This document shows positions 298 to 60,402 of a stretch of 64,000 bases of DNA, piece after piece; positions within the stretch are counted from its first letter, which is position 1, and each line of letters starts with the position of its first letter. The translations under genes were made by a program, and so were the position numbers. This stretch comes from an uncultured Gammaproteobacteria bacterium (GTDB lineage: Bacteria > Patescibacteriota > Microgenomatia > CAZETR01 > Amesbacteraceae): the NCBI GenBank assembly GCA_964518565.1, contig CAZFGX010000001.1:905553-969552 (forward strand). The letters run 5' to 3'. A model generated the notes under the pieces. It did no database searches. It was not told where the DNA came from and saw only the letters and a list, made by a program, of their open reading frames with translations.

Positions 298-1968
298 CTA
301 GCCAAAGGTAAAAGCAAATGCCCCAATCCCAGATGAAAATTCCAATCTCAACCGATGTTGACCAGATTTTTCCAATTTCACCAAATCATACAGTCGGTCA
401 GTATCCACTACTATATCTTGCAACTTTTCTCCATCCAACCACACATGCACCGTACCTATTCCAGCGGTCGGTGGTCGCATGACCAAAAACACTCGACTCG
501 CTACAAATTCATACTCCAACACCGCAGCCTGCCCACTAATTGCCGCTTCCGGGGTAATATTCCACTGTCCATCCAAACTAAAATGATTTACCTTCACTTT
601 CGGATTCAAACGAAATTGTTGCACTCCATCATCTGCCTTGCCCACCCCATCCAAATACAACATCCGTCTCGACCCCAAATATGTTTCTGGCGACAAAGCT
701 ACACGAGGCGTGTCGTCACTCATGCTACCCGATTTCAACCCATCCACCGTTTGCCCATTTTCTATCAGCAATGCCCGAATCGCGTCTTCAGTCTTATCAT
801 ATTCTCCTTCACCAAAATGGGTATAGCGAATTACCCCCTTGGCATCAATCAAATATTTTGCCGGCCAATATAAATTTTGATAAGCATTCCAGGTCGCATA
901 ATTATTATCCTGTGCCACTGGGTACAAGATGCCAAATTGTTGTATTGCTCGCTGCACATTTGCTGTCTCTTTTTCAAACGCAAACTCTGGTGTATGCACC
1001 CCCACTACTACAAATCCTTTATCTTTATATGTGTTATACCAGCTGGTCACATGTGGAAGCGTCCGAATACAATTGATACAGGTATATGTCCAAAAATCTA
1101 TCAATACCACCTTACCCCGCAACTCTGCCATGGTCAGCGGTTGTGTATTCAGCCACCGTTCAATGCCCACAAACTCCGGCGCCAGAGTCTTGCCCACTGG
1201 CAACGCCGTCTTACCAGTCAGCTCTCTCAATTCGTTTTGCACCGTAGTACTTTTTTCAAACCCACTCGTCACAACCGCCAAGCCTGGCAACCGTTCAAGA
1301 ATTTTTGCCTGCAATAACACATCGTAATGAAAATAAATTCCTACAGCCACGACTAGCATCACCACACCAAACACCTGCTGGATCTTACCCGTAAATCGGT
1401 TTATCAATTTTGTTCTTGCCAAAAACGCCTGCCCACCATACGAAAATGCAAACAACGGGACTCCTACACCAGCCACATATGCAATCGTCACGGCAATAGC
1501 TTGCACCCCCACTCCACCAGTTGCTGCCAAAGTAGCAATTGCTGCCAATATAGGCCCAGCACATGGGGACCACACTCCACCCAGCGACACTCCAGTCAAA
1601 AATCCTGGCCAAAATCCAGCCTGTTTTTCGTTTCCAGCTTTTCCAAACACATTAGCCAACTTTCCTACCAACAGCTCAAACCCTACTGCCAATCGTGGCA
1701 CGATCATCATCACTGCCAAAATCACCAATACCCCCACCGACACCAATCGCAATACTACCGGATCAATACCAAAAACCCTCACCAAAGCCGAAACAGTCAA
1801 CGTAAACACAGTAAAGCTACTCATCACCCCAAGAGTAATTCCTACAGATCGCACTCTTCCTCCACCTCCTGCCACACTAGCCGACAATACGATTGGCAAA
1901 ATTGGCCAAATACATGGTGCCAAAATTGTCACTAGTCCTGATAAAAATGCAAAAAATAATAACAACAT
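298..1968 (-). CDS. DipZ-like thiol:disulfide interchange protein (CcdA/DsbD membrane domain fused to TlpA/ResA-type thioredoxin and a C-terminal domain)
   Basis: 556 aa. N-terminal polytopic CcdA-like region with conserved Cys. Thioredoxin-like CxxC motif WTYTCINCIRTLPHV. The domain order matches mycobacterial DipZ. Confidence 0.75.
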   Translation of the reverse strand: MLLLFFAFLSGLVTILAPCIWPILPIVLSASVAGGGGRVRSVGITLGVMSSFTVFTLTVSALVRVFGIDPVVLRLVSVGVLVILAVMMIVPRLAVGFELLVGKLANVFGKAGNEKQAGFWPGFLTGVSLGGVWSPCAGPILAAIATLAATGGVGVQAIAVTIAYVAGVGVPLFAFSYGGQAFLARTKLINRFTGKIQQVFGVVMLVVAVGIYFHYDVLLQAKILERLPGLAVVTSGFEKSTTVQNELRELTGKTALPVGKTLAPEFVGIERWLNTQPLTMAELRGKVVLIDFWTYTCINCIRTLPHVTSWYNTYKDKGFVVVGVHTPEFAFEKETANVQRAIQQFGILYPVAQDNNYATWNAYQNLYWPAKYLIDAKGVIRYTHFGEGEYDKTEDAIRALLIENGQTVDGLKSGSMSDDTPRVALSPETYLGSRRMLYLDGVGKADDGVQQFRLNPKVKVNHFSLDGQWNITPEAAISGQAAVLEYEFVASRVFLVMRPPTAGIGTVHVWLDGEKLQDIVVDTDRLYDLVKLEKSGQHRLRLEFSSGIGAFAFTFG

Positions 1969-14184: not shown

Positions 14185-14248
14185 TTTTTGCAAAAAAAAA
14201 TGGCGGAGAGAAAAGTCTCTCCGCCATAACCCGGAAACTAGCTACAAA

Positions 14249-16096
14249 TCAATTCGAACACGCACGGACAGCTTGGTTACACACCTTACCCACATTCACA
14301 TCTTTACTATCAGTACCTGCTAAACCATCCAAAGTTAAGGTGTCGCTCACCTTCGTAAGGGACATAATTTTGGCGGTAGGGCTGTCCTTGGACAACGAAA
14401 AAATCACACCCGGATACTGGACTAGCTGAAATTGGATTTCATTACCCAAGTCACTAATCCGAGACACCTCACCTTTATACAAAGTCACCCCAGCTGCCTT
14501 CTGCATGTCGGGCGAAGCATCACTATCCCCAGCAATTTGTCGTTGCAACTTAGCGTAAGCTTCATTTAGTGTTGGAGCAATGATCACCTTTGGAGCATCT
14601 GTGTTTGCGTATCGAGCTCGAAAGAATGCAAATCCCATGTGCTTTCCGCGCAAAGAATTTGCCTCATCTGGATCGACCAGCAAACAATAGACCACCTTCT
14701 CACCCAACACATCAGTCAGAATACAGTTATCCGCTTCGGCATCTTTTGCCATACCCGGAGTGTTGCGTACCCGTTCAGTCACCAATGTATCAATCGACTC
14801 AATAGTCGAAAGAGGAACTGGCGGCTTAATGGCAATCGCCTCCCCAGTACGAGGATCTACATACAAAATCCTGGCAATCTGTGTCCCCTTACTCTCATCA
14901 GTGAAAGTAATCTGATATGCCATTCGTGGCAATCGTGACACATAGTTGAACCGATCAATCTTCATTCGTCGGTCAAAATTCGTTTGAGGGCACCATGTAG
15001 CCTCTGAAAATTGTCCCCAAGCTTGTGCATACTTTTGCACATAATCCGGAGAAAAAATTCGATCCACATCTGCCGGCATGTCTGCCAACGAAGTCGTAGT
15101 AATTTGCCCAGTAAATGGATCCATCAACAGAGCTGAATCCATGGTATCGCCATCGACTCCCAAAGTCGGCTTCAAAACCCCAGCTGTATATATAGCTCGC
15201 CCATCATCCATCACTTCAATCCCCGGATCATCAGCAATTGCCTGATTCGGTAGTTCAAAATCATAGTACAAATGAGCCTTCAAGTTTTGACCACTCGAGA
15301 ATCGAATATCATAGACATATTTGATTTTCTGATCCAAAACGATAATCGGCTTTGACACCGAACGATTTGTCGCATCAATCAATATATATCCCGGCACCAT
15401 GCCACCTTTCTTAAAAAAGGTGTTAAACGACTTACCATCCAATCCTAGAACTTCACCCGCAACTTCACGCGGCTTCAGCTCAGCATGCCAGTACAAATGA
15501 CCATTGATAGTCTCCAAGTATGGATGCTCAGCCACATCTAGCCAACCACCCAAATCCTGTCCCATAACGTCCAGCGCATTTGCATAGGCTTCACGCTCTG
15601 AGCGCTGTGGCAGCTGGTCAAGCGGCACATCAAATCGGTAACCATCTTGCTGCTTGACCTTCAAAACTCCCGCAAACTGCTGGTTAATCTGGTCATAAGC
15701 CGAACCACAGATAAATGGCCTACTAGTGATAGGCCCCTGTGGATTAAAGATCGTAGCTCCTATCAGAAGAACAAACAACCCCACAAAAGCAATCATTTGA
15801 ATGATTAATGCCGATGGCGAACCATCACCATACGAACGGCCAGCAAGCCCAATCGCCTCAAGAACAATAAAAACAACAAGCGGCACAAAACTCAACCAAA
15901 AGTAATCCCCAAAAGGAAAAACCTTGAGATGGACGCTTGCATATCCAGTAATAATCCAGATAAGAAAAGCGTTAACCAATAAACCAGCAACTGACACAGT
16001 AATCGCCTTTACGACTCGCCCCTCCAAAATACCAAAGATCAAACTGATCAACGCTGGTATCAAGGGGAACGCAAACATCATTCCTGTTTGTGACAT
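14249..16096 (-). CDS. large polytopic membrane protein with big extracytoplasmic domain, unknown function
   Basis: 615 aa. About six N-terminal TM helices, then a ~450-aa soluble region. No recognised motif. Confidence 0.5.
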   Translation of the reverse strand: MSQTGMMFAFPLIPALISLIFGILEGRVVKAITVSVAGLLVNAFLIWIITGYASVHLKVFPFGDYFWLSFVPLVVFIVLEAIGLAGRSYGDGSPSALIIQMIAFVGLFVLLIGATIFNPQGPITSRPFICGSAYDQINQQFAGVLKVKQQDGYRFDVPLDQLPQRSEREAYANALDVMGQDLGGWLDVAEHPYLETINGHLYWHAELKPREVAGEVLGLDGKSFNTFFKKGGMVPGYILIDATNRSVSKPIIVLDQKIKYVYDIRFSSGQNLKAHLYYDFELPNQAIADDPGIEVMDDGRAIYTAGVLKPTLGVDGDTMDSALLMDPFTGQITTTSLADMPADVDRIFSPDYVQKYAQAWGQFSEATWCPQTNFDRRMKIDRFNYVSRLPRMAYQITFTDESKGTQIARILYVDPRTGEAIAIKPPVPLSTIESIDTLVTERVRNTPGMAKDAEADNCILTDVLGEKVVYCLLVDPDEANSLRGKHMGFAFFRARYANTDAPKVIIAPTLNEAYAKLQRQIAGDSDASPDMQKAAGVTLYKGEVSRISDLGNEIQFQLVQYPGVIFSLSKDSPTAKIMSLTKVSDTLTLDGLAGTDSKDVNVGKVCNQAVRACSN

Positions 16097-37844: not shown

Positions 37845-38106
37845 CTCCCCCGCAGGGATTCGAACCCCGAACCTTTTCGTTACAAGAACCCTCGCATTAC
37901 TGCAAGGCTTGGACTATCTCATCGACCACATGGGCCGCCAGGTATATAGTCTCTACACATTTACTACATATATTTATATGTAGATTTAGCTCGGGATTGT
38001 CCTACAAATGTAGGAGTTCCCCGAATTAGCCTGATTTTTCCACTCGATGTTGCCACCAAGGGCTGCCAATTGACAGCGAATTGCTCTACCGTTGAGCTAC
38101 AGGGGA
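37845..38106 (-). tRNA. tRNA-Asn(GUU) interrupted by a ~190-nt putative group I intron
   Basis: Exon 1 (38106..38073): UCCCCUG-UA-GCUC-AACGGUA-GAGC-A-AUUCG-CUGU. Exon 2 (37882..37845): UAA-CGAAA-AGGUU-CGGGG-UUCGAAU-CCCUG-CGGGGGA-G. Joined, they give a standard cloverleaf with a U1-A72 start like E. coli tRNA-Asn, anticodon loop CUGUUAA and discriminator G. No CCA is encoded. Because both intron flanks carry a full loop, the splice position is ambiguous; an Asp(GUC) reading is possible but lacks the U-1/omegaG boundaries. Confidence 0.6.
37883..38072 (-). ncRNA. putative group I intron inserted in the tRNA anticodon loop (between positions 35 and 36)
   Basis: The 5' exon ends in U and the intron ends in G (omegaG). 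There is an R-like element AGAGACUAUA (plus 37945..37954) and an S-like element GAGAUAGUCC (plus 37911..37920) that could form P7 (GACUA/UAGUC). Several local hairpins. No ORF inside. Confidence 0.55.
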
Positions 38107-38227
38107 ATAAATTGTTAATGTAATTCACCTGTACCAACGGTTCCGTTGAGCTATCACGATCCCGCAATGCGGGAGAGAGATAGAGAAATTTAGCTTGGCT
38201 AAATTTCGATACAGGGGAATAAATTGT
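38098..38227. repeat. partial tandem duplication of the tRNA-Asn 5' end in its leader
   Basis: The 18-nt direct repeat tacaggggaataaattgt occurs at 38098..38115 and 38210..38227 (tRNA nt 1-9 plus 9 nt of leader). The D-arm block ccgttgagcta is duplicated at 38089..38099 and 38143..38153. Hairpins lie between (cccgcaatgcggg; aaatttagc-ttg-gctaaattt). Confidence 0.6.
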
Positions 38228-46018: not shown

Positions 46019-46519
46019 ATGTTGCCAATATTTGTTCGCGCCTTTCTGGTTTTTTTACCAGCCGGTATCGCCAACATGACTCCAATACTAGCTGCTCATA
46101 CTCCAGCCCTAAAAAAGTTCGCCACCCCTTTAGATTTTGGCCACCACTTTCACCATAAACGCATCTTTGGTGATCACAAAACCTGGCGCGGACTAATAAC
46201 TGGTGTATTCACCGGCACCCTCACCAGCTTATTTTTCGGTCTACCGATCAGCTATGGTCTATTAGTTAGTTTCGGCGCCTTGGCCGGAGATGCGATCAAA
46301 AGCTTTTTCAAACGCCGCTTTAATGTCGCCTCTGGCCGTTCTTGGTTTCCTTTTGATCAAGTCGACTTTATTCTCGGCGGTCTACTTCTCGCCGCCTTGC
46401 TTGGCTCAGCCAACCCCACCCGTGGATTGGAAGTCTACATTTTCCTTCTCTATTTCGGTCTCCATCTTATTTCCAGTTTTGTCGGTTATCTTTTAAAATT
46501 AAAATCTAGTCCAATATGA
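46019..46519 (+). CDS. CDP-archaeol synthase (CarS/DUF46) family protein
   Basis: 166-aa membrane protein with the signature FGDHKTWRGLITG and downstream GDAIKSFFKRR. Confidence 0.55.
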   Translation: MLPIFVRAFLVFLPAGIANMTPILAAHTPALKKFATPLDFGHHFHHKRIFGDHKTWRGLITGVFTGTLTSLFFGLPISYGLLVSFGALAGDAIKSFFKRRFNVASGRSWFPFDQVDFILGGLLLAALLGSANPTRGLEVYIFLLYFGLHLISSFVGYLLKLKSSPI

Positions 46520-47220
46520 AACGTCTCAGTGCCTATCTAGTTCATACATTGACTGCCACAGGCACCGTCTGCGGCCTACTTGCTCTCTATACCATTCATA
46601 CTCGAGAATACCAAACCACCTTCATCTTGCTGGCTATTGGTCTAATCATCGATGGTATAGACGGCACATTGGCTCGTAAAGTCGATATCAAACACTCCGG
46701 GGTCAAAATAGACGGTGCTCTCATGGACAATATTATCGACTACCTCACATATGCAATCGTCCCGGCCTTTTTCTTTCTTACCACCCCCTATTTATTACCC
46801 CAATGGCGCGTTCCAATAGCCGCAGCCATCGCCCTCTCCTCTGCTTTCCAGTTTAGCCAAACAGACGCCAAAACCGATGATCATTTCTTCAAAGGCTTCC
46901 CCGACTACTGGAACATTCTCATGTTCTACTTTTTCATTCTCAATCTCTCACCACTTCTAAATACTCTTATTGTCGGCCTCTGTATTCTGCTTGTCTTTAT
47001 TCCCATCAAATATGTCTACCCATCTCGACCAGATTATGTGACCAAATCCAAAATCATCAGGAAAACCATCAGCATTTCCACCTTAGTCTGGATTTTGTCT
47101 CTCTTTTTCTTACTTCTCTCTTTTCCCACATCCCATCGCACCACCCTCAACCTCAGTCTCCTCTACTGTGGCGCCTATGTCGCCATCAGCCTCTACCGCA
47201 CCTTCCGACCTCTAAAGTAA
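46516..47220 (+). CDS. CDP-alcohol phosphatidyltransferase family protein
   Basis: 234 aa. Motif DGIDGTLARK…GALMDNIIDY (D-G-x2-A-R…G-x3-D-x3-D). Overlaps the CarS-like gene by 4 bp. Confidence 0.7.
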   Translation: MKRLSAYLVHTLTATGTVCGLLALYTIHTREYQTTFILLAIGLIIDGIDGTLARKVDIKHSGVKIDGALMDNIIDYLTYAIVPAFFFLTTPYLLPQWRVPIAAAIALSSAFQFSQTDAKTDDHFFKGFPDYWNILMFYFFILNLSPLLNTLIVGLCILLVFIPIKYVYPSRPDYVTKSKIIRKTISISTLVWILSLFFLLLSFPTSHRTTLNLSLLYCGAYVAISLYRTFRPLK

Positions 47221-47310
47221 TGGCGGAGAGGGCGAGATTCGAACTCGCGGTGAACTTGCGCCCACACACGCTTTCCAAGCGTGCGCACTAGACCGCTATG
47301 CGACCTCTCC
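47221..47310 (-). tRNA. tRNA-Ser(GGA)
   Basis: Reverse complement: GGAGAGG-UC-GCAU…anticodon loop UUGGAAA, long variable arm, T-arm GCGAGUUCGAAUCUCGC, acceptor CCUCUCC-G-CCA. Confidence 0.8.
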
Positions 47311-47333
47311 AGGTTTAAACAACGAGACGTGCA

Positions 47334-47365
47334 ATATCGAATCTCATTCGATATGCGACCTCTCC
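47334..47365. repeat. leader copy of the tRNA-Ser(GGA) 5' end plus a 9-bp-stem hairpin
   Basis: tatgcgacctctcc at 47352..47365 repeats tRNA nt 1-14 (47297..47310). Palindrome atatcgaat-ctc-attcgatat at 47334..47354. Confidence 0.55.
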
Positions 47366-47407
47366 AAAAACATCTAATTTTACTCTACCAAATAAACCTC
47401 TAGCAAA

Positions 47408-48205
47408 TTAATGTAGATTTGCACCATACCCAAATGTATATAGCCAAGAAACAATTTGTCGAATTGGACTCGGCCATATAAGCGAAAACATATATCTATC
47501 TTCCACCATCCGTTTAGAATCTTCTATACGAATTACTGTCTCCATATCAGAGTGAATTCTGTGTTTCACCAGATCCCTATCTACATATACAAAACTTCCT
47601 GTCATTGCAGCGATTCTCCACCAAGCTTCCCAATCCAACGCGACTACCATATCATCGCGAAAAACAAATTTTCCCAATCGCGCTTTATGAAACATCACAC
47701 TTGGACATAAAATCGGACAACCCAATACCAACAAAGCCCGCTTCCGCCACAATTGACTAGCCCCACCCCAAATAAAAATTCCCGACAACAGCTGTTTAAT
47801 CAGCAAGCTAAAATATCCTCTCTTAGGATCAGTACGCAATTCAGAATATTTAGTAAAAATGATCAATGAGTTAGAACGTTGTCGTGCCGCCAACAAGCAA
47901 CATTCTGTATAGCTCGAATCATAGATATCATCTTGGTGCGCCAAGGTCACGTATTGTGTCTTGGCCAAAGCATAGGCTTTTGACCAATCTGGGCCAATAC
48001 CCTTCCCTGAATGGGGATACAATCTGAGACGATATTTTTCAGCAATTTTTTTTAAAAAAGGACTGGGAGTAGATGTAGAAATAAAAATTTCGCTTTTCAC
48101 TGTTTGTGCCAACAACGAGCGAATACAATCTTCCAAATAAACGGAGTCTTTATAAGCCAATACTACAAAACTATGTACGTAATCCATCAAAAACATATTA
48201 TACAA
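47408..48205 (-). CDS. glycosyltransferase family 2
   Basis: 265 aa. GT-A fold with DxD-like LAHQDDIYD. Confidence 0.65.
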   Translation of the reverse strand: MYNMFLMDYVHSFVVLAYKDSVYLEDCIRSLLAQTVKSEIFISTSTPSPFLKKIAEKYRLRLYPHSGKGIGPDWSKAYALAKTQYVTLAHQDDIYDSSYTECCLLAARQRSNSLIIFTKYSELRTDPKRGYFSLLIKQLLSGIFIWGGASQLWRKRALLVLGCPILCPSVMFHKARLGKFVFRDDMVVALDWEAWWRIAAMTGSFVYVDRDLVKHRIHSDMETVIRIEDSKRMVEDRYMFSLIWPSPIRQIVSWLYTFGYGANLH

Positions 48206-48229
48206 ACATTTTTGGTAAAATAATTCGTA

Positions 48230-48922
48230 ATGAAGCCAAAAATTTCGCTAATCATCCCCTGCTTTAACGAAGCAGAAAGCATAGGCTCAGTACTCAAGTC
48301 CATACCAAAAACAGCAAATATCGAAACAATAGTCATCGACAACAATTCACGAGACCAAACAGCAACTATTGCCAAAAAAATGGGAGCCAAAGTAATCTTT
48401 GAACCCAGACAAGGAAAGGGATATGCAGTGAGAACTGGAATAAAAAATATCGACAAAAAATCTGAATATGTTGTAATGCTTGACGGTGACAACACCTACA
48501 GACCAGAAGAAATATTTCGTCTAGTTGAACCACTACAAAATAATTTTTGCGATGTCATATTGGGTTCGCGCCTGAGTGGAAAAGTAAAACCAAACTCAAT
48601 GAAATTCCATAGCCGAGTCGGAAATTGGTTCTTTTCCTTTTTAGTTAGATTTTTTTACGTGACAAATGTTACAGATGTCCTCACGGGATACTTTGCCTGG
48701 AAAACTGATGCGATTAAAAAACTTCTTCCTGTATTAACCTCCCAAGGTTTTGAAATAGAAATGGAAATGATCACAAAAATGGCCAAAATGGGCTATGGCA
48801 TATACTCTGTTCCAATTACCTACGACAAAAGGATTGGCAAATCAAACCTAAGCAGTATAAAAGATGGAATAAAAATCTTTAAAGAATTTTTAAAAAATTT
48901 ACAATGGAAACCACAAAAATAA
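48230..48922 (+). CDS. glycosyltransferase family 2 (dolichyl-/polyprenyl-phosphate sugar transferase-like)
   Basis: 230 aa. ISLIIPCFNEAESI…MLDGDNTYRPEE. Confidence 0.8.
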   Translation: MKPKISLIIPCFNEAESIGSVLKSIPKTANIETIVIDNNSRDQTATIAKKMGAKVIFEPRQGKGYAVRTGIKNIDKKSEYVVMLDGDNTYRPEEIFRLVEPLQNNFCDVILGSRLSGKVKPNSMKFHSRVGNWFFSFLVRFFYVTNVTDVLTGYFAWKTDAIKKLLPVLTSQGFEIEMEMITKMAKMGYGIYSVPITYDKRIGKSNLSSIKDGIKIFKEFLKNLQWKPQK

Positions 48923-50109
48923 AAATTTTTTGGATAGTTCCACATTTAAATCTTTGGCAAGGGGGGTATAGATTTATCGCAGACTTATGCAAACAAACAT
49001 CAAATCAAATAACGACCACAATTGGTTACTCATCAGGAAAACAGGATTTAATTAGACATTTTGAACAAAGCAATGTCATAACAAAAAAAATTGGCGCTAT
49101 TGGAACAAATATCTTTTGGTATTGGGTACTAAGTCCACTATTTATTCTAGTTGAAATCATTTGTTCGTTAAAAACAACTAAAAATAACGACAAGGTAATC
49201 GCTTCACTTTTCCCCTCCATCTTCGTTTCCGCTGTATGCGCAAAAATATTTAAAAAAGATTTCATTCATTTTTGTTTTGTACCTTATCCATGGTTCTATG
49301 ACGAAAAATTTATCGACGAGCACAAATTTTATTTACGCGTCGCATTCAAGTTCTTAAGGTTTATATACACACCCTTAGATAAATGGGCTGCCAAATCTGC
49401 CAAAAAAACAATAACCCTGGATCCAATTAGTGCTGAACAAATCCATACGGTATATGGAATAAAAGCATTTCAAATTTCGTTAGGAATCGATACAAAACAT
49501 TTTCGGCCAATAAATAAAAAAAGAAATGAGATATATAAAAAATATTCATCTAATAAAATAATTTTTCATTCAACCGATTATTCACATTTAAAAAAAACAG
49601 AGAGAGTAATTGACATATTTACCGACGTTCAAAAAAAAATACCCAATACATTATTACTTATTAGTACTACCAGACCAGGAACCGCGGATGAAATTCGAAT
49701 TAAGAACAAAATAGTAAAACTAGGATTAAGCAAAAAAATTATTCTAACGGGAAAAATTGAGTATCAATTACTACCATACTACTTCTCAGCTGCAAGTTGT
49801 TACATTTCCCTTGCTGAAAATACCGCCATGTCAAATGTAAACTTACCTGTAAAGGAGGCGCTCGCCTGCGAAACAGCAGCAATAAGAACCCAAACCATAG
49901 TTCCAGATGTAACGAACAACAAATCCGGTTTCATAGTTAATCCCAATAACAAAAACCAAGTTATAAACAGAATCATGTATCTACTCAACAATCCGCTTCG
50001 TGCAAAAAAAATGGGCGTTTGGGGGAGGAAATCGATAATTCAACAATACTCATGGGAAAGAACTAGCGAAAAATTTGTTTCATTAATAGCTAATAACAAA
50101 AGTAATTAA
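48904..50109 (+). CDS. glycosyltransferase family 4 (GT-B)
   Basis: 401 aa. C-terminal GT-B region with the E-x7-E-like VKEALACETAAI. Confidence 0.6.
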   Translation: METTKIKIFWIVPHLNLWQGGYRFIADLCKQTSNQITTTIGYSSGKQDLIRHFEQSNVITKKIGAIGTNIFWYWVLSPLFILVEIICSLKTTKNNDKVIASLFPSIFVSAVCAKIFKKDFIHFCFVPYPWFYDEKFIDEHKFYLRVAFKFLRFIYTPLDKWAAKSAKKTITLDPISAEQIHTVYGIKAFQISLGIDTKHFRPINKKRNEIYKKYSSNKIIFHSTDYSHLKKTERVIDIFTDVQKKIPNTLLLISTTRPGTADEIRIKNKIVKLGLSKKIILTGKIEYQLLPYYFSAASCYISLAENTAMSNVNLPVKEALACETAAIRTQTIVPDVTNNKSGFIVNPNNKNQVINRIMYLLNNPLRAKKMGVWGRKSIIQQYSWERTSEKFVSLIANNKSN

Positions 50110-50842
50110 CTGTCCCCACAAGCAAAATATTACGGTAATGTTTTTTTAAAATTTTTGAGATTGAATTAAATTTATCACGATCAAGTGATTCAAAAAACAA
50201 ATATTTAGGCTTGTATTTAGAAAAGTCTAAGCCTATTAAGGCCTCAAGCTCATAACCTTCCAAATCAAGAGAGAGAAAATCTATTTGCCTAATTTTGCAC
50301 TGATCAAATAACTTAGTAAGAGTAATAGTAGGTACAGTATAAGAATATTTACGAACAAACGGGGACCCAGAATTCCAAAATGAAATATGATTTTTTATTT
50401 GAGCATCCGACATAGAATTTCTAACAACAGAAGACAAGCCTGAATAAAGTATTTCAATAAAAGAATTTTTGAAATACTTCGAAACCAAGGCAAATTGAAA
50501 AACCAAAGACCGGTTTCTATTCATTTTACATAACAATGCTTCTTTAGTATTTGGCTCAATTAATATTCCCCGCCACCCCAGTGCTTTTTCTAAAAAATAT
50601 GTATTACTTAAAAAAACCCCATTTGCAGCACCAGCTTCCACAAAAAAACCATCCCTAAAATTTAAGAATTTATTGAAAACGAGTTGAAAATCTTTTTCTT
50701 CGGTATGAGAAAAATAATAAATTCCAAATCGTTCAAAAAATGGCCGAAAGATAGTTACCTTTATCCAATAAATTCTATGAGGAATAAAATTCAATAGTAT
50801 TCGAAAAAAAATCTTCACGTTAATCAAAGCATAAATAATCAA
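50090..50842 (-). CDS. FkbM-family methyltransferase
   Basis: 250 aa. FVEAGAANGVFLSNTYFLEK…IDFLSLDLEGYE. Confidence 0.65.
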   Translation of the reverse strand: MIIYALINVKIFFRILLNFIPHRIYWIKVTIFRPFFERFGIYYFSHTEEKDFQLVFNKFLNFRDGFFVEAGAANGVFLSNTYFLEKALGWRGILIEPNTKEALLCKMNRNRSLVFQFALVSKYFKNSFIEILYSGLSSVVRNSMSDAQIKNHISFWNSGSPFVRKYSYTVPTITLTKLFDQCKIRQIDFLSLDLEGYELEALIGLDFSKYKPKYLFFESLDRDKFNSISKILKKHYRNILLVGTVNYFCY

Positions 50843-51554
50843 TGGAATTAATTTTTTGAATGGTTGAATAGTATCTTTTTAATAATGTGGCGACTTGTAC
50901 AAATTTATCTTTTGTTTGCGCCTCAAAAAGTAAAAATCTTGGTTTATATCTCGAAAAGTCTAAACCGGTCAACGCTTCATATTCGTAGCCTTCAACATCT
51001 AATGACAAAAAATCAATTTTTGAAATTCCACTTTGACGAATAATGTCATTCAAAGTCATCGCAGGCACAGTTCGCTCACCACGAACAGTCCATGGAGAAA
51101 CAGACCTAATTTTTTCAATATGAACCTTTTTCGATACATCATCCATCGCTCCACTAACCACACTCCCCAATCCCGCTTGAGAAATAGAAATAGAGGATCT
51201 TCGAAAATTTTTACCAACTAAAGCGCATGAAAAAACTGTCGAGCGCTTTCTATTTTTATTACACAAAGCAGCGTATTCAGGAATAGGTTCAACCAAAACA
51301 CCATGCCAATGACGAAATTTTTCCAGAAAATATGTATTACTAAATAAAACACCATCCCATGCCCCTGCTTCAAGGAAAACACCATTTTCAAAATTAAAAT
51401 GTTCATCAATTAATTTATCCAAACCCATTATTTCCATCCTTGAAAACCAAGTTAATCCAAACATTTCCGCAAAAGGTCTCAAAAACGCAGCCTTTATTCT
51501 ATAGTAAACATTAAACAAAACGGTAGAAAAGCGACCAGTTTTATTTATAGCCAT
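50820..51554 (-). CDS. FkbM-family methyltransferase (tandem paralog)
   Basis: 244 aa. FLEAGAWDGVLFSNTYFLEK…IDFLSLDVEGYE. About 50% identical to its neighbour. Confidence 0.65.
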   Translation of the reverse strand: MAINKTGRFSTVLFNVYYRIKAAFLRPFAEMFGLTWFSRMEIMGLDKLIDEHFNFENGVFLEAGAWDGVLFSNTYFLEKFRHWHGVLVEPIPEYAALCNKNRKRSTVFSCALVGKNFRRSSISISQAGLGSVVSGAMDDVSKKVHIEKIRSVSPWTVRGERTVPAMTLNDIIRQSGISKIDFLSLDVEGYEYEALTGLDFSRYKPRFLLFEAQTKDKFVQVATLLKRYYSTIQKINSIDYLCFD

Positions 51555-52953
51555 ACCACAAAAACAAATATTGCAAAATAAAAATATACATCAAAACAAA
51601 CAATAGAACCAAAATGAGATAATAAATTTTCATCCTTGAAGCCAAAATAGTAATTTTTGATTTTGCCGCAAATGGTGCAGCAGCTATTAACAACAAAGGT
51701 ACAAAATATTTACCTTGTACGCCATTTACCCACACGACATCTGCTGCGGTATTCGCTATAAATAAATACATATAAAGCAAGATAACCGACGAAACAACAC
51801 CAAAAACCAACAATCTTTTCTCTACTAAATAAAATGAAAATTTATCAACTACTCCATCCATCCACAATCCCAATACAGACATAAGTCCTAAAACAACAAC
51901 TCCCATTCCAAAATAAAAACGTACATCCAATCCTAGATAACCAAAAAATTCAGCCGGCAAAAAAGCAATAGTCATAGCAGATGTGTACAACGATGCTTTA
52001 ATAAAAATCAAAGGATGAAAAATTATTTGTTTTATTTGATACAACTGATCAAAACGGAAATCTGTGCCCTCTAGCAAATGCACATTTGATTCTTGAAAAA
52101 ACGTGTACTGATCCATCCGAGTGGCATTATTTACAGATGGATGAAACAAAAATACACTAGTCAAATAATAAAAAATTATTCCTAGAACCAAAATATTGAC
52201 TCCGATCAATAACTTTCTAAGCAAGAAAAATTTCTGAAAAAGTAAAAAGCTAAATACAAAAAAAATAGGGTAATAAAACGGTTTCAAAATAACTGCCGCT
52301 ATACCAGGCAAACAACACATCAACCACCATTTAGATATTGACCGAAAACGTATAAGTCTCAAAAAAACCGCAAACAATAAAAAAAGTCCCGGAGTTGAAA
52401 GTGAGTCATAACTAATAGTTGCAAAATGTAGTAAAACTACCGGCAATAAACCAAGCGCAAAAAATAGTCGTTTAAAATCAGGCGTAATACGAATCGCAGC
52501 AGCAACCAACAATAGACCAAATACTGAATTAAACACTCTTCCAAAATACAATTCATGAATTGGCGATAAACTAAAAAAATGAGCCAAAAAAATTCCAACT
52601 GCTGCTGCAGTATGACCATACAAAGGCGCTCCACAGACTAATGTCCTGACTGATTGATATGAAGAATCAGGCAGAGACTGGTATGAAAAAACTCGAGTCC
52701 AGTCAAATCCAGGCGGTGGAACAACCATAGATTTATCCAGTCCCATTTGCTCAATCAAATGTAATCGATTTTTTGAAATCAGATGCTGACCATCGTTACA
52801 AAAAACATGACCTTCTACCAATGCACTTGCAGCCAAATAATGTCTTTGCTCGTCAGGAATACGAAACGGAGGAATAAATATAGCAAAAAACACACAAGCC
52901 AAACCACCAAACACCAAATAAATGACAGGCAATTTTTTTTCAAAAACTCTCAT
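51541..52953 (-). CDS. DUF2142-like polytopic membrane protein (putative GT-C-type glycosyltransferase)
   Basis: 470 aa with more than ten TM segments. N-terminal PDEQRHY motif. Confidence 0.45.
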   Translation of the reverse strand: MRVFEKKLPVIYLVFGGLACVFFAIFIPPFRIPDEQRHYLAASALVEGHVFCNDGQHLISKNRLHLIEQMGLDKSMVVPPPGFDWTRVFSYQSLPDSSYQSVRTLVCGAPLYGHTAAAVGIFLAHFFSLSPIHELYFGRVFNSVFGLLLVAAAIRITPDFKRLFFALGLLPVVLLHFATISYDSLSTPGLFLLFAVFLRLIRFRSISKWWLMCCLPGIAAVILKPFYYPIFFVFSFLLFQKFFLLRKLLIGVNILVLGIIFYYLTSVFLFHPSVNNATRMDQYTFFQESNVHLLEGTDFRFDQLYQIKQIIFHPLIFIKASLYTSAMTIAFLPAEFFGYLGLDVRFYFGMGVVVLGLMSVLGLWMDGVVDKFSFYLVEKRLLVFGVVSSVILLYMYLFIANTAADVVWVNGVQGKYFVPLLLIAAAPFAAKSKITILASRMKIYYLILVLLFVLMYIFILQYLFLWYGYK

Positions 52954-54464
52954 TTTGACGGCGCAGCATAAATAATAGCCGTTTTATCCTCGTAGACATT
53001 GTGCCACCCTGCCTCCTCAAGTGTATGTAAAAACTGCACCGGTTCCTTATAATTCAAAAATTGTAGAACCATATTTGGCACAGGAAAGTTTAACAAGCTC
53101 GAAGTCTTTACTCCAGGTTTAGGCCACAACACTCTCTGTATTTTATATTTTTCAAAATATGGTTGAAAATTTCCTTTTTCCGAAATATCTATGATATCTG
53201 CAAATGCCGATAGACTCTCCTCTTCTGGAGCCATATCTCTTTTCCAAATAGCCATTCGTCCATCAATAAATACTTTTTTCTCTGGATATTGCCAGATCAA
53301 ATACCCTCCCCATCCATATTCAGCCAACAAATTACCTTCAAATGGATGCTCCTTCAAATACTCAATCGCTCCAATAGGATAATATCGACTTCTATTCGGA
53401 TCGGCCAATTGACTCACTAGTTGCCAACCACACACCCACACAAAAAATAACCCAGCAATCCCCAGCAACACTCCAAAAAATATTTTTGCCCGCGCCAAAT
53501 TACCCGCCACCAACCGTTCAAACTCAGCAAACACTTTGGGCCACAAAAACAAAAACAGCACCGCAAATAATGCTACATGACGAGTACTCAATATTGCTTC
53601 CAATATAATCGCTCCTATAAGCAACCCTGTCCAAGACGAAAATCTGGATCGAAAATACCAGTATCCAAATCCCAAAAGTACTGCTGCAAAAATAAACGCG
53701 GGTTCGAAATTAAACACTGAAGGCATCCACTCGATAATGTAAGTGCGCATTTGGTTCCCCCACAAAGTCATACCCACTTCCCGCCACAATTCAAATCCAT
53801 AGGGAGTTAACAACGTCACAACCAAACCAGTTACCCAGGCTAATAAATCTTTCCACAAAATCCTTTTTTTCATCCAAGATTCCACCACTGCCGTCATCGC
53901 CCACACCGCCAATCCCACAATAAACCCTCCGTGTAAATTTGCCCAAAACCAAATACACGTAACCAATGCAAGATATCTCAACCTTGAGGTCCAATGTAAC
54001 ACCCGAAGAAAAATTGCAAACAACAACCAATCTACTACCTGTGTTCGTACAGAAAATCTCAACAAAAACATTGGCGCAGCCAACAACAAACCCAATACCG
54101 ATCGCAAAGAATATTCGGGGTAAACAGCCACCAAAACGGTCAAAACCACAATTGCTGCATATAATCCAGCCAAAACCGTCATTCCCAATTTCGGATAAAC
54201 TATTGCCCAAATCACATCTGACAACCAAGCATGATCCACATAGGGATAACTTGGCATGGTGTAGGAAAATGGGTCTGTTTTTGGAATCTGTCGATGTTGC
54301 ACAACATAATTTCCCGTCATCAAATGCCAACCAAAATCTGGATCCAGTCGCACTGCCGCCTGAACAGAAAATATTCCAAAAATTATTATCAATAAAAGCC
54401 ACCACATCCATTTCATAAGTAAAACTAAGTATACGTTACTCTCGAACAAAAATTTGTGCTTCAC
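52950..54464 (-). CDS. polytopic membrane protein, putative GT-C-fold glycosyltransferase
   Basis: 504 aa. N-terminal block RLDPDFGWHLMTGNY…PKTDPFSYTMPSYPYVDHAWL, then about ten TM segments and a C-terminal soluble domain. Confidence 0.45.
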   Translation of the reverse strand: MKHKFLFESNVYLVLLMKWMWWLLLIIIFGIFSVQAAVRLDPDFGWHLMTGNYVVQHRQIPKTDPFSYTMPSYPYVDHAWLSDVIWAIVYPKLGMTVLAGLYAAIVVLTVLVAVYPEYSLRSVLGLLLAAPMFLLRFSVRTQVVDWLLFAIFLRVLHWTSRLRYLALVTCIWFWANLHGGFIVGLAVWAMTAVVESWMKKRILWKDLLAWVTGLVVTLLTPYGFELWREVGMTLWGNQMRTYIIEWMPSVFNFEPAFIFAAVLLGFGYWYFRSRFSSWTGLLIGAIILEAILSTRHVALFAVLFLFLWPKVFAEFERLVAGNLARAKIFFGVLLGIAGLFFVWVCGWQLVSQLADPNRSRYYPIGAIEYLKEHPFEGNLLAEYGWGGYLIWQYPEKKVFIDGRMAIWKRDMAPEEESLSAFADIIDISEKGNFQPYFEKYKIQRVLWPKPGVKTSSLLNFPVPNMVLQFLNYKEPVQFLHTLEEAGWHNVYEDKTAIIYAAPSK

Positions 54465-57839: not shown

Positions 57840-57924
57840 GGAGGGGTCGCATAGTGGCCGAGTGCAGCGGTTTACTAAACCGCCATATCGCAAGATATCG
57901 CGAGTTCGAATCTCGCCCCCTCCG
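57840..57924 (+). tRNA. type II (Ser-like) tRNA whose anticodon reads ACU
   Basis: GGAGGGG-UC-GCAU-AGUGGCCGA-GUGC-A-GCGGU-UUACUAA-ACCGC, hairpin variable arm, GCGAG-UUCGAAU-CUCGC-CCCCUCC-G. A34 is unexpected for a bacterial tRNA-Ser (normally GCU). Confidence 0.55.
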
Positions 57925-58148
57925 CAGAAGGTCTTCGGTTGCTCCAAGACCCATCTACTATGCTCGATTAGCCCTATGTGGCTTGCTAAAAAGACGCTAA
58001 GAATCGCAAGTATCCCAAACATAGCCTGTAATGTATAAAATCGCCTAAATGGCCCTCAAGGTATTTGCGCTCGGTTCTAAGCTTTTGATGAAAAGAGCTG
58101 CTTTAGCCCTACGTTAGTGAAAAATCCTCGTTCTAATCTCGTTTTTCC

Positions 58149-58802: not shown

Positions 58803-60116
58803 TCAGATAAGGCTAAGCTGTCTGTCTCTCAGGCTGAATTTCGAATTTACACCTTTGAGGATTTTGAGTCTTTCCTCTGGAGTTCCAAATTGAAGAACGT
58901 GGAGTAAATATTCTTTGAGCATTTCGGTATGTGTTTCGCTATATTCTCTCGGACTCTGGTCGCCTGTGTTATGAGGAGTGATTTCTACTCTGGGTATATA
59001 GTCACTAATCACGTTTGCTTTGAAATGTTGCAGTCTTTTTACTTCTACTTCAAACTCTTGCATCAGATATGAGGTGTTTAGTTTGATTTTTGGTAGATAA
59101 CCGATTAGTTGTTTGATCAACTCTTGCTCTGTAATGTATGGCTCGGGGCAATCATATTTCTTGATGCGATTACAGTGATAATAAATGTGCGAATTTACTA
59201 TGTTTGCTTTCGTTCTTCGGTATTTTAGTTCAGCGGTTACACTTCCACCGCACGACCCGCAGATACAAATTTTCTTGAACGGAAACAGTTGTTTATTCCA
59301 TTGTCTCGGTGCAACTTGAAGTTGAATTTGCACCCTTTCAAATAACGCTTTTGTGATGAGTGGTTCATAGGTTCCTTTGTACCAGATATTTCCGTACTGA
59401 AACTCGCCGTAGTAAAAAGCGTTTTGGAGAGCAACGTAGATTTTACTCAGAGGCATTTTGCATCCACTCTTTGTGGTAAATCCTATGTCATCCAACCATT
59501 TCTTGACCATCCGTCCTGAGAATCCTTGATCGGCAACCTTATGAAATATTTGTTTGATAACTGGTGCTCGTTCAGGATCGAGTTCCACCGTTGATATCCG
59601 GTTTACTTTTAGGACATTTCTATACCCAATTGGTGCAACTCCAGGTCTGATTCCAATCTGACATTTATTGCGTAACCCTCGTTTAACATTCACACCTCGA
59701 TTATCATTCTCCAGCTTTGCTTGTGAGCAGAGAATCATCAGTAAGAATTTCTCGTTGGGATTATCGGTAAACGATTGAGAGTAGGTTTTGATATGGGTCA
59801 GTTTTCCTTGATCCATTAAATCAACAATTCGTCCTAAATCTCCAGCATTTCGAGATAACCGATCAGGAGCCCATGTGAGAATACTGTTGTATCGTCCTTC
59901 AGTTACTCCAAGCAGAAGATTGTTAAACTCTGGTCGTTGGCCCGATTCTTTGGCTGAGTGGCTTTCTGTAATTGTCTCAGTAATATCAAGTTTTTCTCGC
60001 TTTGCAAGAAGTTGCATTTCTTTAAGTTGACCGTCAATCGACATTGCTTGCCGTTCATCCGATTCGCTTGATTTACGGGCGTATAAGCAGTATTTCAGCC
60101 TGGTAGCATCTTTCAT
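58803..60116 (-). CDS. large serine recombinase (resolvase/invertase catalytic domain + recombinase domain + zinc ribbon)
   Basis: Start moved to MKDATRLKYCLYARKSSESDE… (catalytic Ser in YARKSS). Downstream DRLSRN and a C-terminal CxxC…C ribbon. 438 aa. Confidence 0.8.
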   Translation of the reverse strand: MKDATRLKYCLYARKSSESDERQAMSIDGQLKEMQLLAKREKLDITETITESHSAKESGQRPEFNNLLLGVTEGRYNSILTWAPDRLSRNAGDLGRIVDLMDQGKLTHIKTYSQSFTDNPNEKFLLMILCSQAKLENDNRGVNVKRGLRNKCQIGIRPGVAPIGYRNVLKVNRISTVELDPERAPVIKQIFHKVADQGFSGRMVKKWLDDIGFTTKSGCKMPLSKIYVALQNAFYYGEFQYGNIWYKGTYEPLITKALFERVQIQLQVAPRQWNKQLFPFKKICICGSCGGSVTAELKYRRTKANIVNSHIYYHCNRIKKYDCPEPYITEQELIKQLIGYLPKIKLNTSYLMQEFEVEVKRLQHFKANVISDYIPRVEITPHNTGDQSPREYSETHTEMLKEYLLHVLQFGTPEERLKILKGVNSKFSLRDRQLSLI

Positions 60117-60207
60117 CAGGTACAAGGTACCGCAAAGGTTCTGGAAGTCTAGTCGGGGAATACTATAACCCCGCGATGAAAACCTCCAACCTTTAAGGAC
60201 TCTCTTT

Positions 60208-60402
60208 TTACTTACTAGTCCAAGCAAAAAAATGAGTTATTAAAGTAAAACCGAGGGCAATCCATCCGACAATTGCTGGTAAAAATGCATTGCCAACCAG
60301 GTAGTGCTGCAATAAAATTGCCGCACCAAATCCTCCAACTGCGTGGGAAAGACTTGATAACATAACGTGCTTTGACCAATAATTTATAGGTTTTTCAATC
60401 AT
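60208..60402 (-). CDS. small two-TM membrane protein (paralog of 62091..62285)
   Basis: 64 aa. YWSKHVMLSSLSHAVGGFGAAILLQ…, about 65% identical to its paralog. Confidence 0.45.
   Translation of the reverse strand: MIEKPINYWSKHVMLSSLSHAVGGFGAAILLQHYLVGNAFLPAIVGWIALGFTLITHFFAWTSK

Follow-up and report, generated by a model that had tools for sequence, protein, structure and literature searches.

Direct and inverted partial copies of tRNA 5' ends in the leaders of tRNA-Ser(GGA) and tRNA-Asn(GTT) of an uncultured CPR bacterium

Two tRNA genes preceded by copies of their own 5' ends

We examined a stretch of 64,000 nucleotides of a metagenomic contig, here called the window, that carries seven tRNA genes. 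The source is an ultra-small, Microgenomates/Amesbacteria-like bacterium of the candidate phyla radiation (CPR). One of these, tRNA-Ser(GGA), lies at 47221..47310 on the minus strand and is recognized by both ARAGORN and the Rfam tRNA model (56 bits). An earlier note on this DNA had described an upstream repeat of the first 14 nt of the gene. The 14-mer TATGCGACCTCTCC is indeed present without mismatch at both 47297-47310 and 47352-47365, and the identity extends to 15 nt (47297-47311 and 47352-47366), with a start-to-start spacing of 55 nt. The upstream copy, TGGAGAGGTCGCATA (47352..47366, minus strand), comprises leader base -1 and tRNA positions 1-14 and is referred to below as the decoy. 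When the repeat is extended, 17 of 18 positions are identical (47294-47311 versus 47349-47366). With up to two mismatches allowed, the 14-mer has four matches in the 64-kb window versus 0.25 expected, a count that none of 100 shuffles reached. The two matches outside this locus fall on the opposite strand, at the 5' ends of the tRNA-Ser(TGA) and tRNA-Ser(ACT) genes.

The leader of tRNA-Ser(GGA) also contains a hairpin, ATATCGAAT-GAG-ATTCGATAT, at 47334..47354 on the minus strand (ATATCGAAT-ctc-ATTCGATAT in plus-strand letters), with a 3-nt loop. Its 9-bp stem is perfect, as had been reported, but the hairpin does not sit just before the copy; 3 nt are common to hairpin and decoy. An imperfect extension gives 19-nt arms (47324-47342 and 47346-47364) that are 79% complementary. 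Part of this extension is TGCACGTCTC (47324..47333, minus strand), an inverted repeat that represents a degenerate reverse complement of decoy positions 2-11 and lengthens the hairpin to approximately 17 bp. Between this segment and the gene lies the proximal leader GTTGTTTAAACCT (47311..47323, minus strand), which contains the self-complementary GTTTAAAC. By direct alignment, the proximal leader resembles the leader that precedes the decoy (TGTTT...T), with TGTTT----TTGGAGAGG... aligned with TGTTTAAACCTGGAGAGG.... Read toward the gene, the order is TGTTTTTGGAGAGGTCGCATA, TCGAAT-GAG-ATTCGA, TATTGCACGTCTC (the degenerate reverse complement of the copy), GTTGTTTAAACCT, and the real gene, which is the third, direct copy of the 5' region. 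Of the 40 nt that separate the repeats, about 25 are identified as local sequence by sensitive alignment of the leader with its gene.

A promoter-like site, TTGCTA-18-TAAAAT, is found at 47377..47406 on the minus strand and ends 10 nt before the decoy. With 9 of 12 consensus matches it constitutes weak evidence for a promoter, and two such sites were found versus 0.7 expected on consensus matches only. A consensus scan revealed no promoter-like site between the decoy and the tRNA. With promoter-like sequence confined to the region upstream of the decoy, the entire block is expected to be transcribed within the pre-tRNA leader.

The second case is tRNA-Asn(GTT), located at 37845..38106 on the minus strand. 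ARAGORN misses this gene because a group I intron at position 35/36 splits it (RF00028, 71 bits, 37890-38082, minus strand). Once the exons flanking the Rfam-detected intron are joined in silico, ARAGORN calls tRNA-Asn(GTT) with its 5' end at 38106. A class of tRNA-Asn genes split by group I introns has recently been described in Patescibacteria (bioRxiv 10.1101/2025.07.03.662931), and the present gene resembles its members both in the location of the intron at 35/36 and in escaping ARAGORN. It differs in its upstream partial duplications, of which the passages searched in that preprint make no mention.

An exact 18-nt copy, ACAATTTATTCCCCTGTA, made up of nine leader nucleotides and tRNA-Asn positions 1-9, occupies 38210..38227 on the minus strand. 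The two occurrences (38227-38210 and 38115-38098) are 112 nt apart, and the upstream one begins 8 nt past a perfect TATAAT box (38241-38236). This copy is interrupted by a 56-nt insert (38154..38209, minus strand) containing the hairpins GAAATTTAGC-caa-GCTAAATTTC and CCCGC-att-GCGGG, of which we found no second copy in the window or in the fetched loci. The direct copy then resumes with TAGCTCAACGG (38143..38153, minus strand), which matches tRNA-Asn positions 8-18 at 11 of 11 nucleotides, for an estimated chance expectation of approximately 0.002. Next comes a reverse-complement copy of the leader and the tRNA-Asn 5' region, ACCGTTG-G-TACAGGTGAATTACATT (38117..38141, minus strand), which covers the leader and positions 1-20. 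The complete order is ACAATTTATTCCCCTGTA, the 56-nt insert, TAGCTCAACGG, AA, CCGTTG-G-TACAGGTGAATTACATT, A, and the real leader and gene. Approximately 37 of the 94 nt between the Asn repeats are local sequence in the sensitive alignment.

Neither arrangement is accidental. The Ser leader is identical base for base in the Logan assemblies of three sequencing runs, and one Logan assembly reproduces the entire Asn locus identically. Together with the shuffle tests, these identical independent assemblies (three runs) rule out a chance repeat or an assembly artefact.

Inverted copies and predicted folding of the leaders

When each leader is aligned sensitively with its gene, both loci show the same order: a direct copy, a reverse-complement copy, and the real gene. 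That two independent minus-strand tRNAs have one architecture had been proposed before, and our analysis bears this out for tRNA-Ser(GGA) and the intron-split tRNA-Asn(GTT). Since the likeness is far beyond chance, a common generating process is likely.

The evidence for the inverted copy is strong at the Asn locus but no more than suggestive at the Ser locus. The Asn copy reaches significance in both the sensitive alignment (p = 0.01) and a strict alignment (p < 0.004). For Ser, p = 0.003 was obtained in one alignment, which includes the self-palindrome GTTTAAAC, and p = 0.14 in a stricter alignment; the extra pairing beyond the perfect stem gave p = 0.017 versus random genomic 11-mers and p = 0.10 versus flank shuffles. 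The direct copies are 100% identical (15/15 and 18/18), whereas the inverted copies are approximately 70-80% identical. Palindromic centres are located at the junctions of both blocks, CAACGG-aa-CCGTTG for Asn and AAT-gag-ATT and GTTTAAAC for Ser. In the window as a whole, there are six distinct perfect hairpins of at least 9 bp versus 1.0 expected, two of which are in the Ser and Asn leaders.

We then considered how these segments could fold as RNA. The perfect Ser hairpin is predicted to fold at -6.3 kcal/mol (z -2.4) and the Ser leader alone at -18.9 kcal/mol (z -3.0). The Asn leader alone is predicted to form a four-way junction in which the inverted copy is paired with the upstream copy (-40.6 kcal/mol, z -6.3). 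The Asn antisense segment can pair equally with the true tRNA 5' end (-18.2 kcal/mol, z -3.9); the corresponding pairing of the Ser antisense segment (-12.0 kcal/mol) is not significant. In the predicted fold of the whole pre-tRNA-Ser, the decoy is paired with the 3' acceptor strand in place of the true 5' strand. Because the decoy displaces the true 5' strand in this fold, an unpaired decoy would be harmful.

Distribution among other tRNA loci

The earlier note had suggested screening tRNA genes for upstream copies of their own 5' ends. Among the seven tRNAs of the window, such copies are present at Ser and Asn and absent from the other five, all of which are on the plus strand. To extend the comparison, a metagenome scan with the 5' half of tRNA-Ser(GGA) recovered 33 stretches, some near-identical and none from the same strain. 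At 32 other metagenomic loci with an identical tRNA-Ser(GGA) 5' half, an upstream copy is found only in contig L109, where 13-15 nt are repeated at -78, just past a promoter-like sequence, and are followed by a hairpin. In 63 non-redundant tRNA upstream regions, and leaving out copies explained by a neighbouring tRNA, significant direct copies occur only at Ser, Asn, and L109, and weakly at L084; the Asn leader alone has a significant inverted copy. The feature therefore appears at two of seven tRNAs in the window versus about 1 in 50 elsewhere. Its absence from the five other tRNAs of the window and from 31 of the 32 loci with an identical 5' half speaks against the systematic processing signal that had been proposed.

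Three distant loci that are syntenic with the Ser locus (tRNA-Ser(GGA), DnaG, and sigma-70; L102, L106, and L107) have plain leaders with no upstream copy. Close relatives were not recovered, in that the neighbouring DUF4012 protein has no database match above approximately 50% identity except itself. A permissive covariance-model search of both leaders against Rfam 15 returned only chance-level matches (E of at least 1). Copies of the Ser and Asn inserts were found in none of the window, the fetched loci, and the viral contigs, and a search with up to three mismatches for a distant third copy of the repeat, as expected at an island boundary, was negative. The one viral contig with the tRNA-Ser(GGA) 5' end carries a complete tRNA-Ser(GGA) gene and not a fragment. 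No copies of the 3' ends of tRNA-Ser(GGA) and tRNA-Asn(GTT) were found.

Other CPR contigs do show related arrangements, there affecting the 3' end of tRNA-Ser(GGA). In L104, L105, L113, and L094, copies of the 3' end of the gene bracket inserts of 86-170 nt. An inverted copy lies between the direct copies in L105 and L094; in L105 and L113, CCA is carried by the downstream copy and not by the gene; and in L091 there are two inverted pseudo-tRNA copies downstream. Short-range direct and inverted partial copies of tRNA-gene ends thus recur in CPR bacteria. A search for an insert family shared across the 5' and 3' cases gave only one weak similarity, between L109 and L113. One could imagine a CPR process that affects 5' ends in the window and L109 as well as 3' ends in L104, L105, L094, L113, and L091. 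That such a process repeatedly places short direct and inverted tRNA-end copies beside the gene, with the products co-opted in the window as decoy/anti-decoy leader switches tuning how individual tRNAs mature, is a speculation that we regard as very unlikely to be correct.

Two further observations were made in the fetched loci. In L098 (approximately 1190-1290, reverse strand), tRNA-Ser(GGA) is apparently broken in the T loop by an unrelated G+C-rich sequence, maybe an intron or an insertion. In the Planctomycetota contig L036 (845-931 and approximately 5447), tRNA-Leu(TAA) positions 1-38 are directly repeated 4.5 kb upstream, which could reflect a 5'-type integrated element or a second, split gene.

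Origin of the leader blocks and their surroundings

The systematic roles proposed for these leaders are not supported by our results, and the blocks are most likely an ordinary, if neat, mutational scar. Specifically, we propose that they are miniature direct-inverted-direct triplications left by replication template switching and tolerated by pairing between decoy and antisense segment, an account to which we attach roughly even confidence. Approximately 25-30 bp, covering an originally short leader together with the initial 14-20 nt of the tRNA, would have been recopied nearby in both orientations by template switching at short inverted repeats and later remodelled. The likely turn-around points are the D-arm quasi-palindrome CAACGG-aa-CCGTTG for Asn and the A+T-rich leader palindrome GTTTAAAC for Ser. 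The whole block would then be transcribed as part of the pre-tRNA leader and discarded by RNase P. On synthesis, the decoy and the antisense segment would pair with each other, leaving neither to compete with the acceptor stem or the 5' half, and the predicted folds suggest that this self-neutralising pair may be the reason the form persists. On this account, the Ser and Asn blocks have no conserved function.

A single template-switch event is known to produce both perfect stems and reverse-complement repeats (PMC8794818). Both blocks have the expected reverse-complement copy between two direct copies, significantly for Asn and suggestively for Ser, and at the junctions of both there are palindromic centres or short inverted repeats. 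The same direct-inverted-direct order, palindromic junctions, and new perfect stems are found in larger template-switch mutations and inverted triplications, such as the Salmonella tandem inversion duplication and yeast ODIRA. Published inverted triplications are kilobases long, whereas here tens of bases are involved, the copies are unequally diverged, and extra sequence is unexplained. Several observations count against the template-switch account. One event followed by neutral decay should give equal divergence, so the perfect direct copies and the 20-30% diverged inverted copies argue against it. The significance of the Ser inverted copy is marginal. The sharp edges of the direct repeats are more like those of a recombination core or a target-site duplication. 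Local copying does not explain the 56-nt Asn insert or the Ser core TCGAAT-GAG-ATTCGA, and it also leaves unexplained the TCG that follows the copy in all three 5' cases (Ser, Asn, and L109) and the TA|TCGAA shared by Ser and Asn.

These sharp edges could instead reflect a decayed attachment-site scar, which we consider unlikely but deserving of weight. An element that targeted the 5' part of the tRNA would have brought a replacement 5' end, the displaced 5' fragment staying next to its own promoter, and would since have been deleted almost entirely, so that only 40-94 nt remain between attL and attR. Integrative elements that target tRNA 5' ends are known but rare (PMC6563490, PMC9897764), and element integration is known to leave partial tRNA genes behind (PMC9897764). 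The perfect, sharp-edged repeats of 15-18 nt made of a tRNA end are typical of integrase identity blocks, and at both loci one copy of the repeat is part of an intact gene while the other is an orphan fragment, as in attL/attR pairs. The upstream copies have a native-looking context, a T-rich leader just past a promoter, like that in L102 and L098; foreign-looking DNA flanks both tRNAs; and other CPR contigs (L104, L105, L113, and L094) have short inserts between tRNA 3'-end repeats. What tells against this origin is the DNA between the repeats. It amounts to only 40 and 94 nt, with the repeats 55 and 112 nt apart and not kilobases, and contains neither an integrase nor an element; Pfam scans of neighbouring ORFs detected no tyrosine integrase near either tRNA, and this, with the short spacing, likewise weighs against the site-specific recombinase target suggested earlier. 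The repeats lack a third copy at a distance, the inserts are without match in viral contigs, and it is the 5' end that is affected, where integration usually involves the 3' end. Integration does not predict that the target should recur as a reverse complement between the repeats, and near-complete deletion would be needed independently in several cases.

The hairpin-rich inserts raise the possibility that a small MITE-like or REP-like mobile element entered a partly duplicated tRNA 5' end and in doing so duplicated TA or a longer target. In all three 5' cases the inserts break the upstream copy just after TA or T and start with TCG, and the two cases in the window share TCGAA. This explanation nevertheless seems to us highly improbable, as the insert ends lack terminal inverted repeats, neither insert has a second copy in the 64-kb window or the fetched loci, and no sequence relationship links the inserts of one case to those of another.

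A different view is that the leaders have a lineage-specific function. Decoy, antisense segment, and true 5' end would act as a three-part RNA switch that alternates between 1:2 and 2:3 pairing, and the hairpin with the following GUUGUUU could serve as a weak attenuator, tuning the maturation or the level of two tRNAs. The alternative pairings exist in silico, a U-rich stretch follows the extended Ser hairpin, the perfect stems and direct repeats could reflect selection, and the feature is frequent in the window relative to other loci. Known attenuators and leader switches likewise have three consecutive segments between promoter and gene, the middle one of which pairs with either neighbour; here, in contrast, there is no canonical terminator, conservation, or known effector, and the downstream gene is a tRNA and not a protein operon. 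The attenuator mentioned in the earlier note survives only as a possible weak effect of the extended hairpin and GUUGUUU, since a scan of 47150-47550 identified no terminator-like site. Unlike the G+C-rich stem and T run of an intrinsic terminator, the perfect part of the Ser stem contains two G-C pairs, and the sequence after the stem is GTTGTTT. The arrangement shows no conservation among orthologous or identical tRNAs of other CPR genomes and matches no Rfam family, an inverted duplication gives strong folding automatically, and we know of no regulatory ligand or factor for a decoy/antisense tRNA leader switch. Taken together, we judge a functional switch to be quite unlikely.

Several other candidates were set aside. 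The only recombinase in the window is a large serine recombinase with Resolvase, Recombinase, and zinc-ribbon domains (58803-60227, minus strand), located 11 kb away; to our knowledge, members of this family do not make 15-18-nt target duplications. An attachment site of this enzyme, a casposon-like 15-bp target duplication, and ectopic integration of a CRISPR spacer were all rejected, as there are no terminal inverted repeats and the duplication lengths vary. An internally deleted pseudo-tRNA, with the D loop joined to the T loop, was suggested by TCGAAT and a 9-mer in common with the T arm and was rejected because the 3' part does not follow.

If the template-switch reading is true, these leaders are natural examples of a single replication error that makes a long perfect RNA stem beside an essential gene, and they would show why only the self-neutralising form, decoy plus antisense segment, survives. 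If the leader is used, it would be a way of controlling tRNA maturation that is, as far as we know, unreported. In either case, tRNA-end fragments of this type can mislead both tRNA annotation and the detection of islands by tRNA-end repeats in small uncultured genomes.

The surroundings of the two genes have several features of their own. Between the 3' end of tRNA-Ser(GGA) and DUF4012-DnaG-sigma-70 lie a CarS-like gene and a CDP-alcohol phosphatidyltransferase (46019-47220, plus strand). The best homologues of the latter, at 48% identity, are from Legionella and Chloroflexi, and neither protein has a homologue in the syntenic CPR loci. A low-GC block (48000-53000, GC 0.30-0.35) between divergent tRNA genes encodes glycosyltransferases, two FkbM methyltransferases, and a DUF2142 membrane protein, and looks like a horizontally acquired surface-glycan island. 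The gene at 14249-16096 has a terminator at 14200-14227, a perfect 12-bp hairpin (ATGGCGGAGAGA-aaag-TCTCTCCGCCAT) with a T8 run after it on the minus strand. An arm of this hairpin matches 11 nt of the tRNA-Ser(GGA) 3' end and flank (47219-47229), perhaps by chance.

The window also contains a tRNA-Ser with anticodon ACT (57840-57925, plus strand), 19 nt after tRNA-Ser(TGA), and no tRNA-Ser(GCT); serine tRNAs do not usually have A at the wobble position. From 1 to 58000, the plus-strand GC skew is very strong, mostly -0.2 to -0.4, and nearly all genes are on the minus strand. Just 3' of this Ser tRNA pair, at 58-61 kb, the skew jumps from -0.36 to approximately 0 in the region of the large serine recombinase, which probably marks an integrated element.
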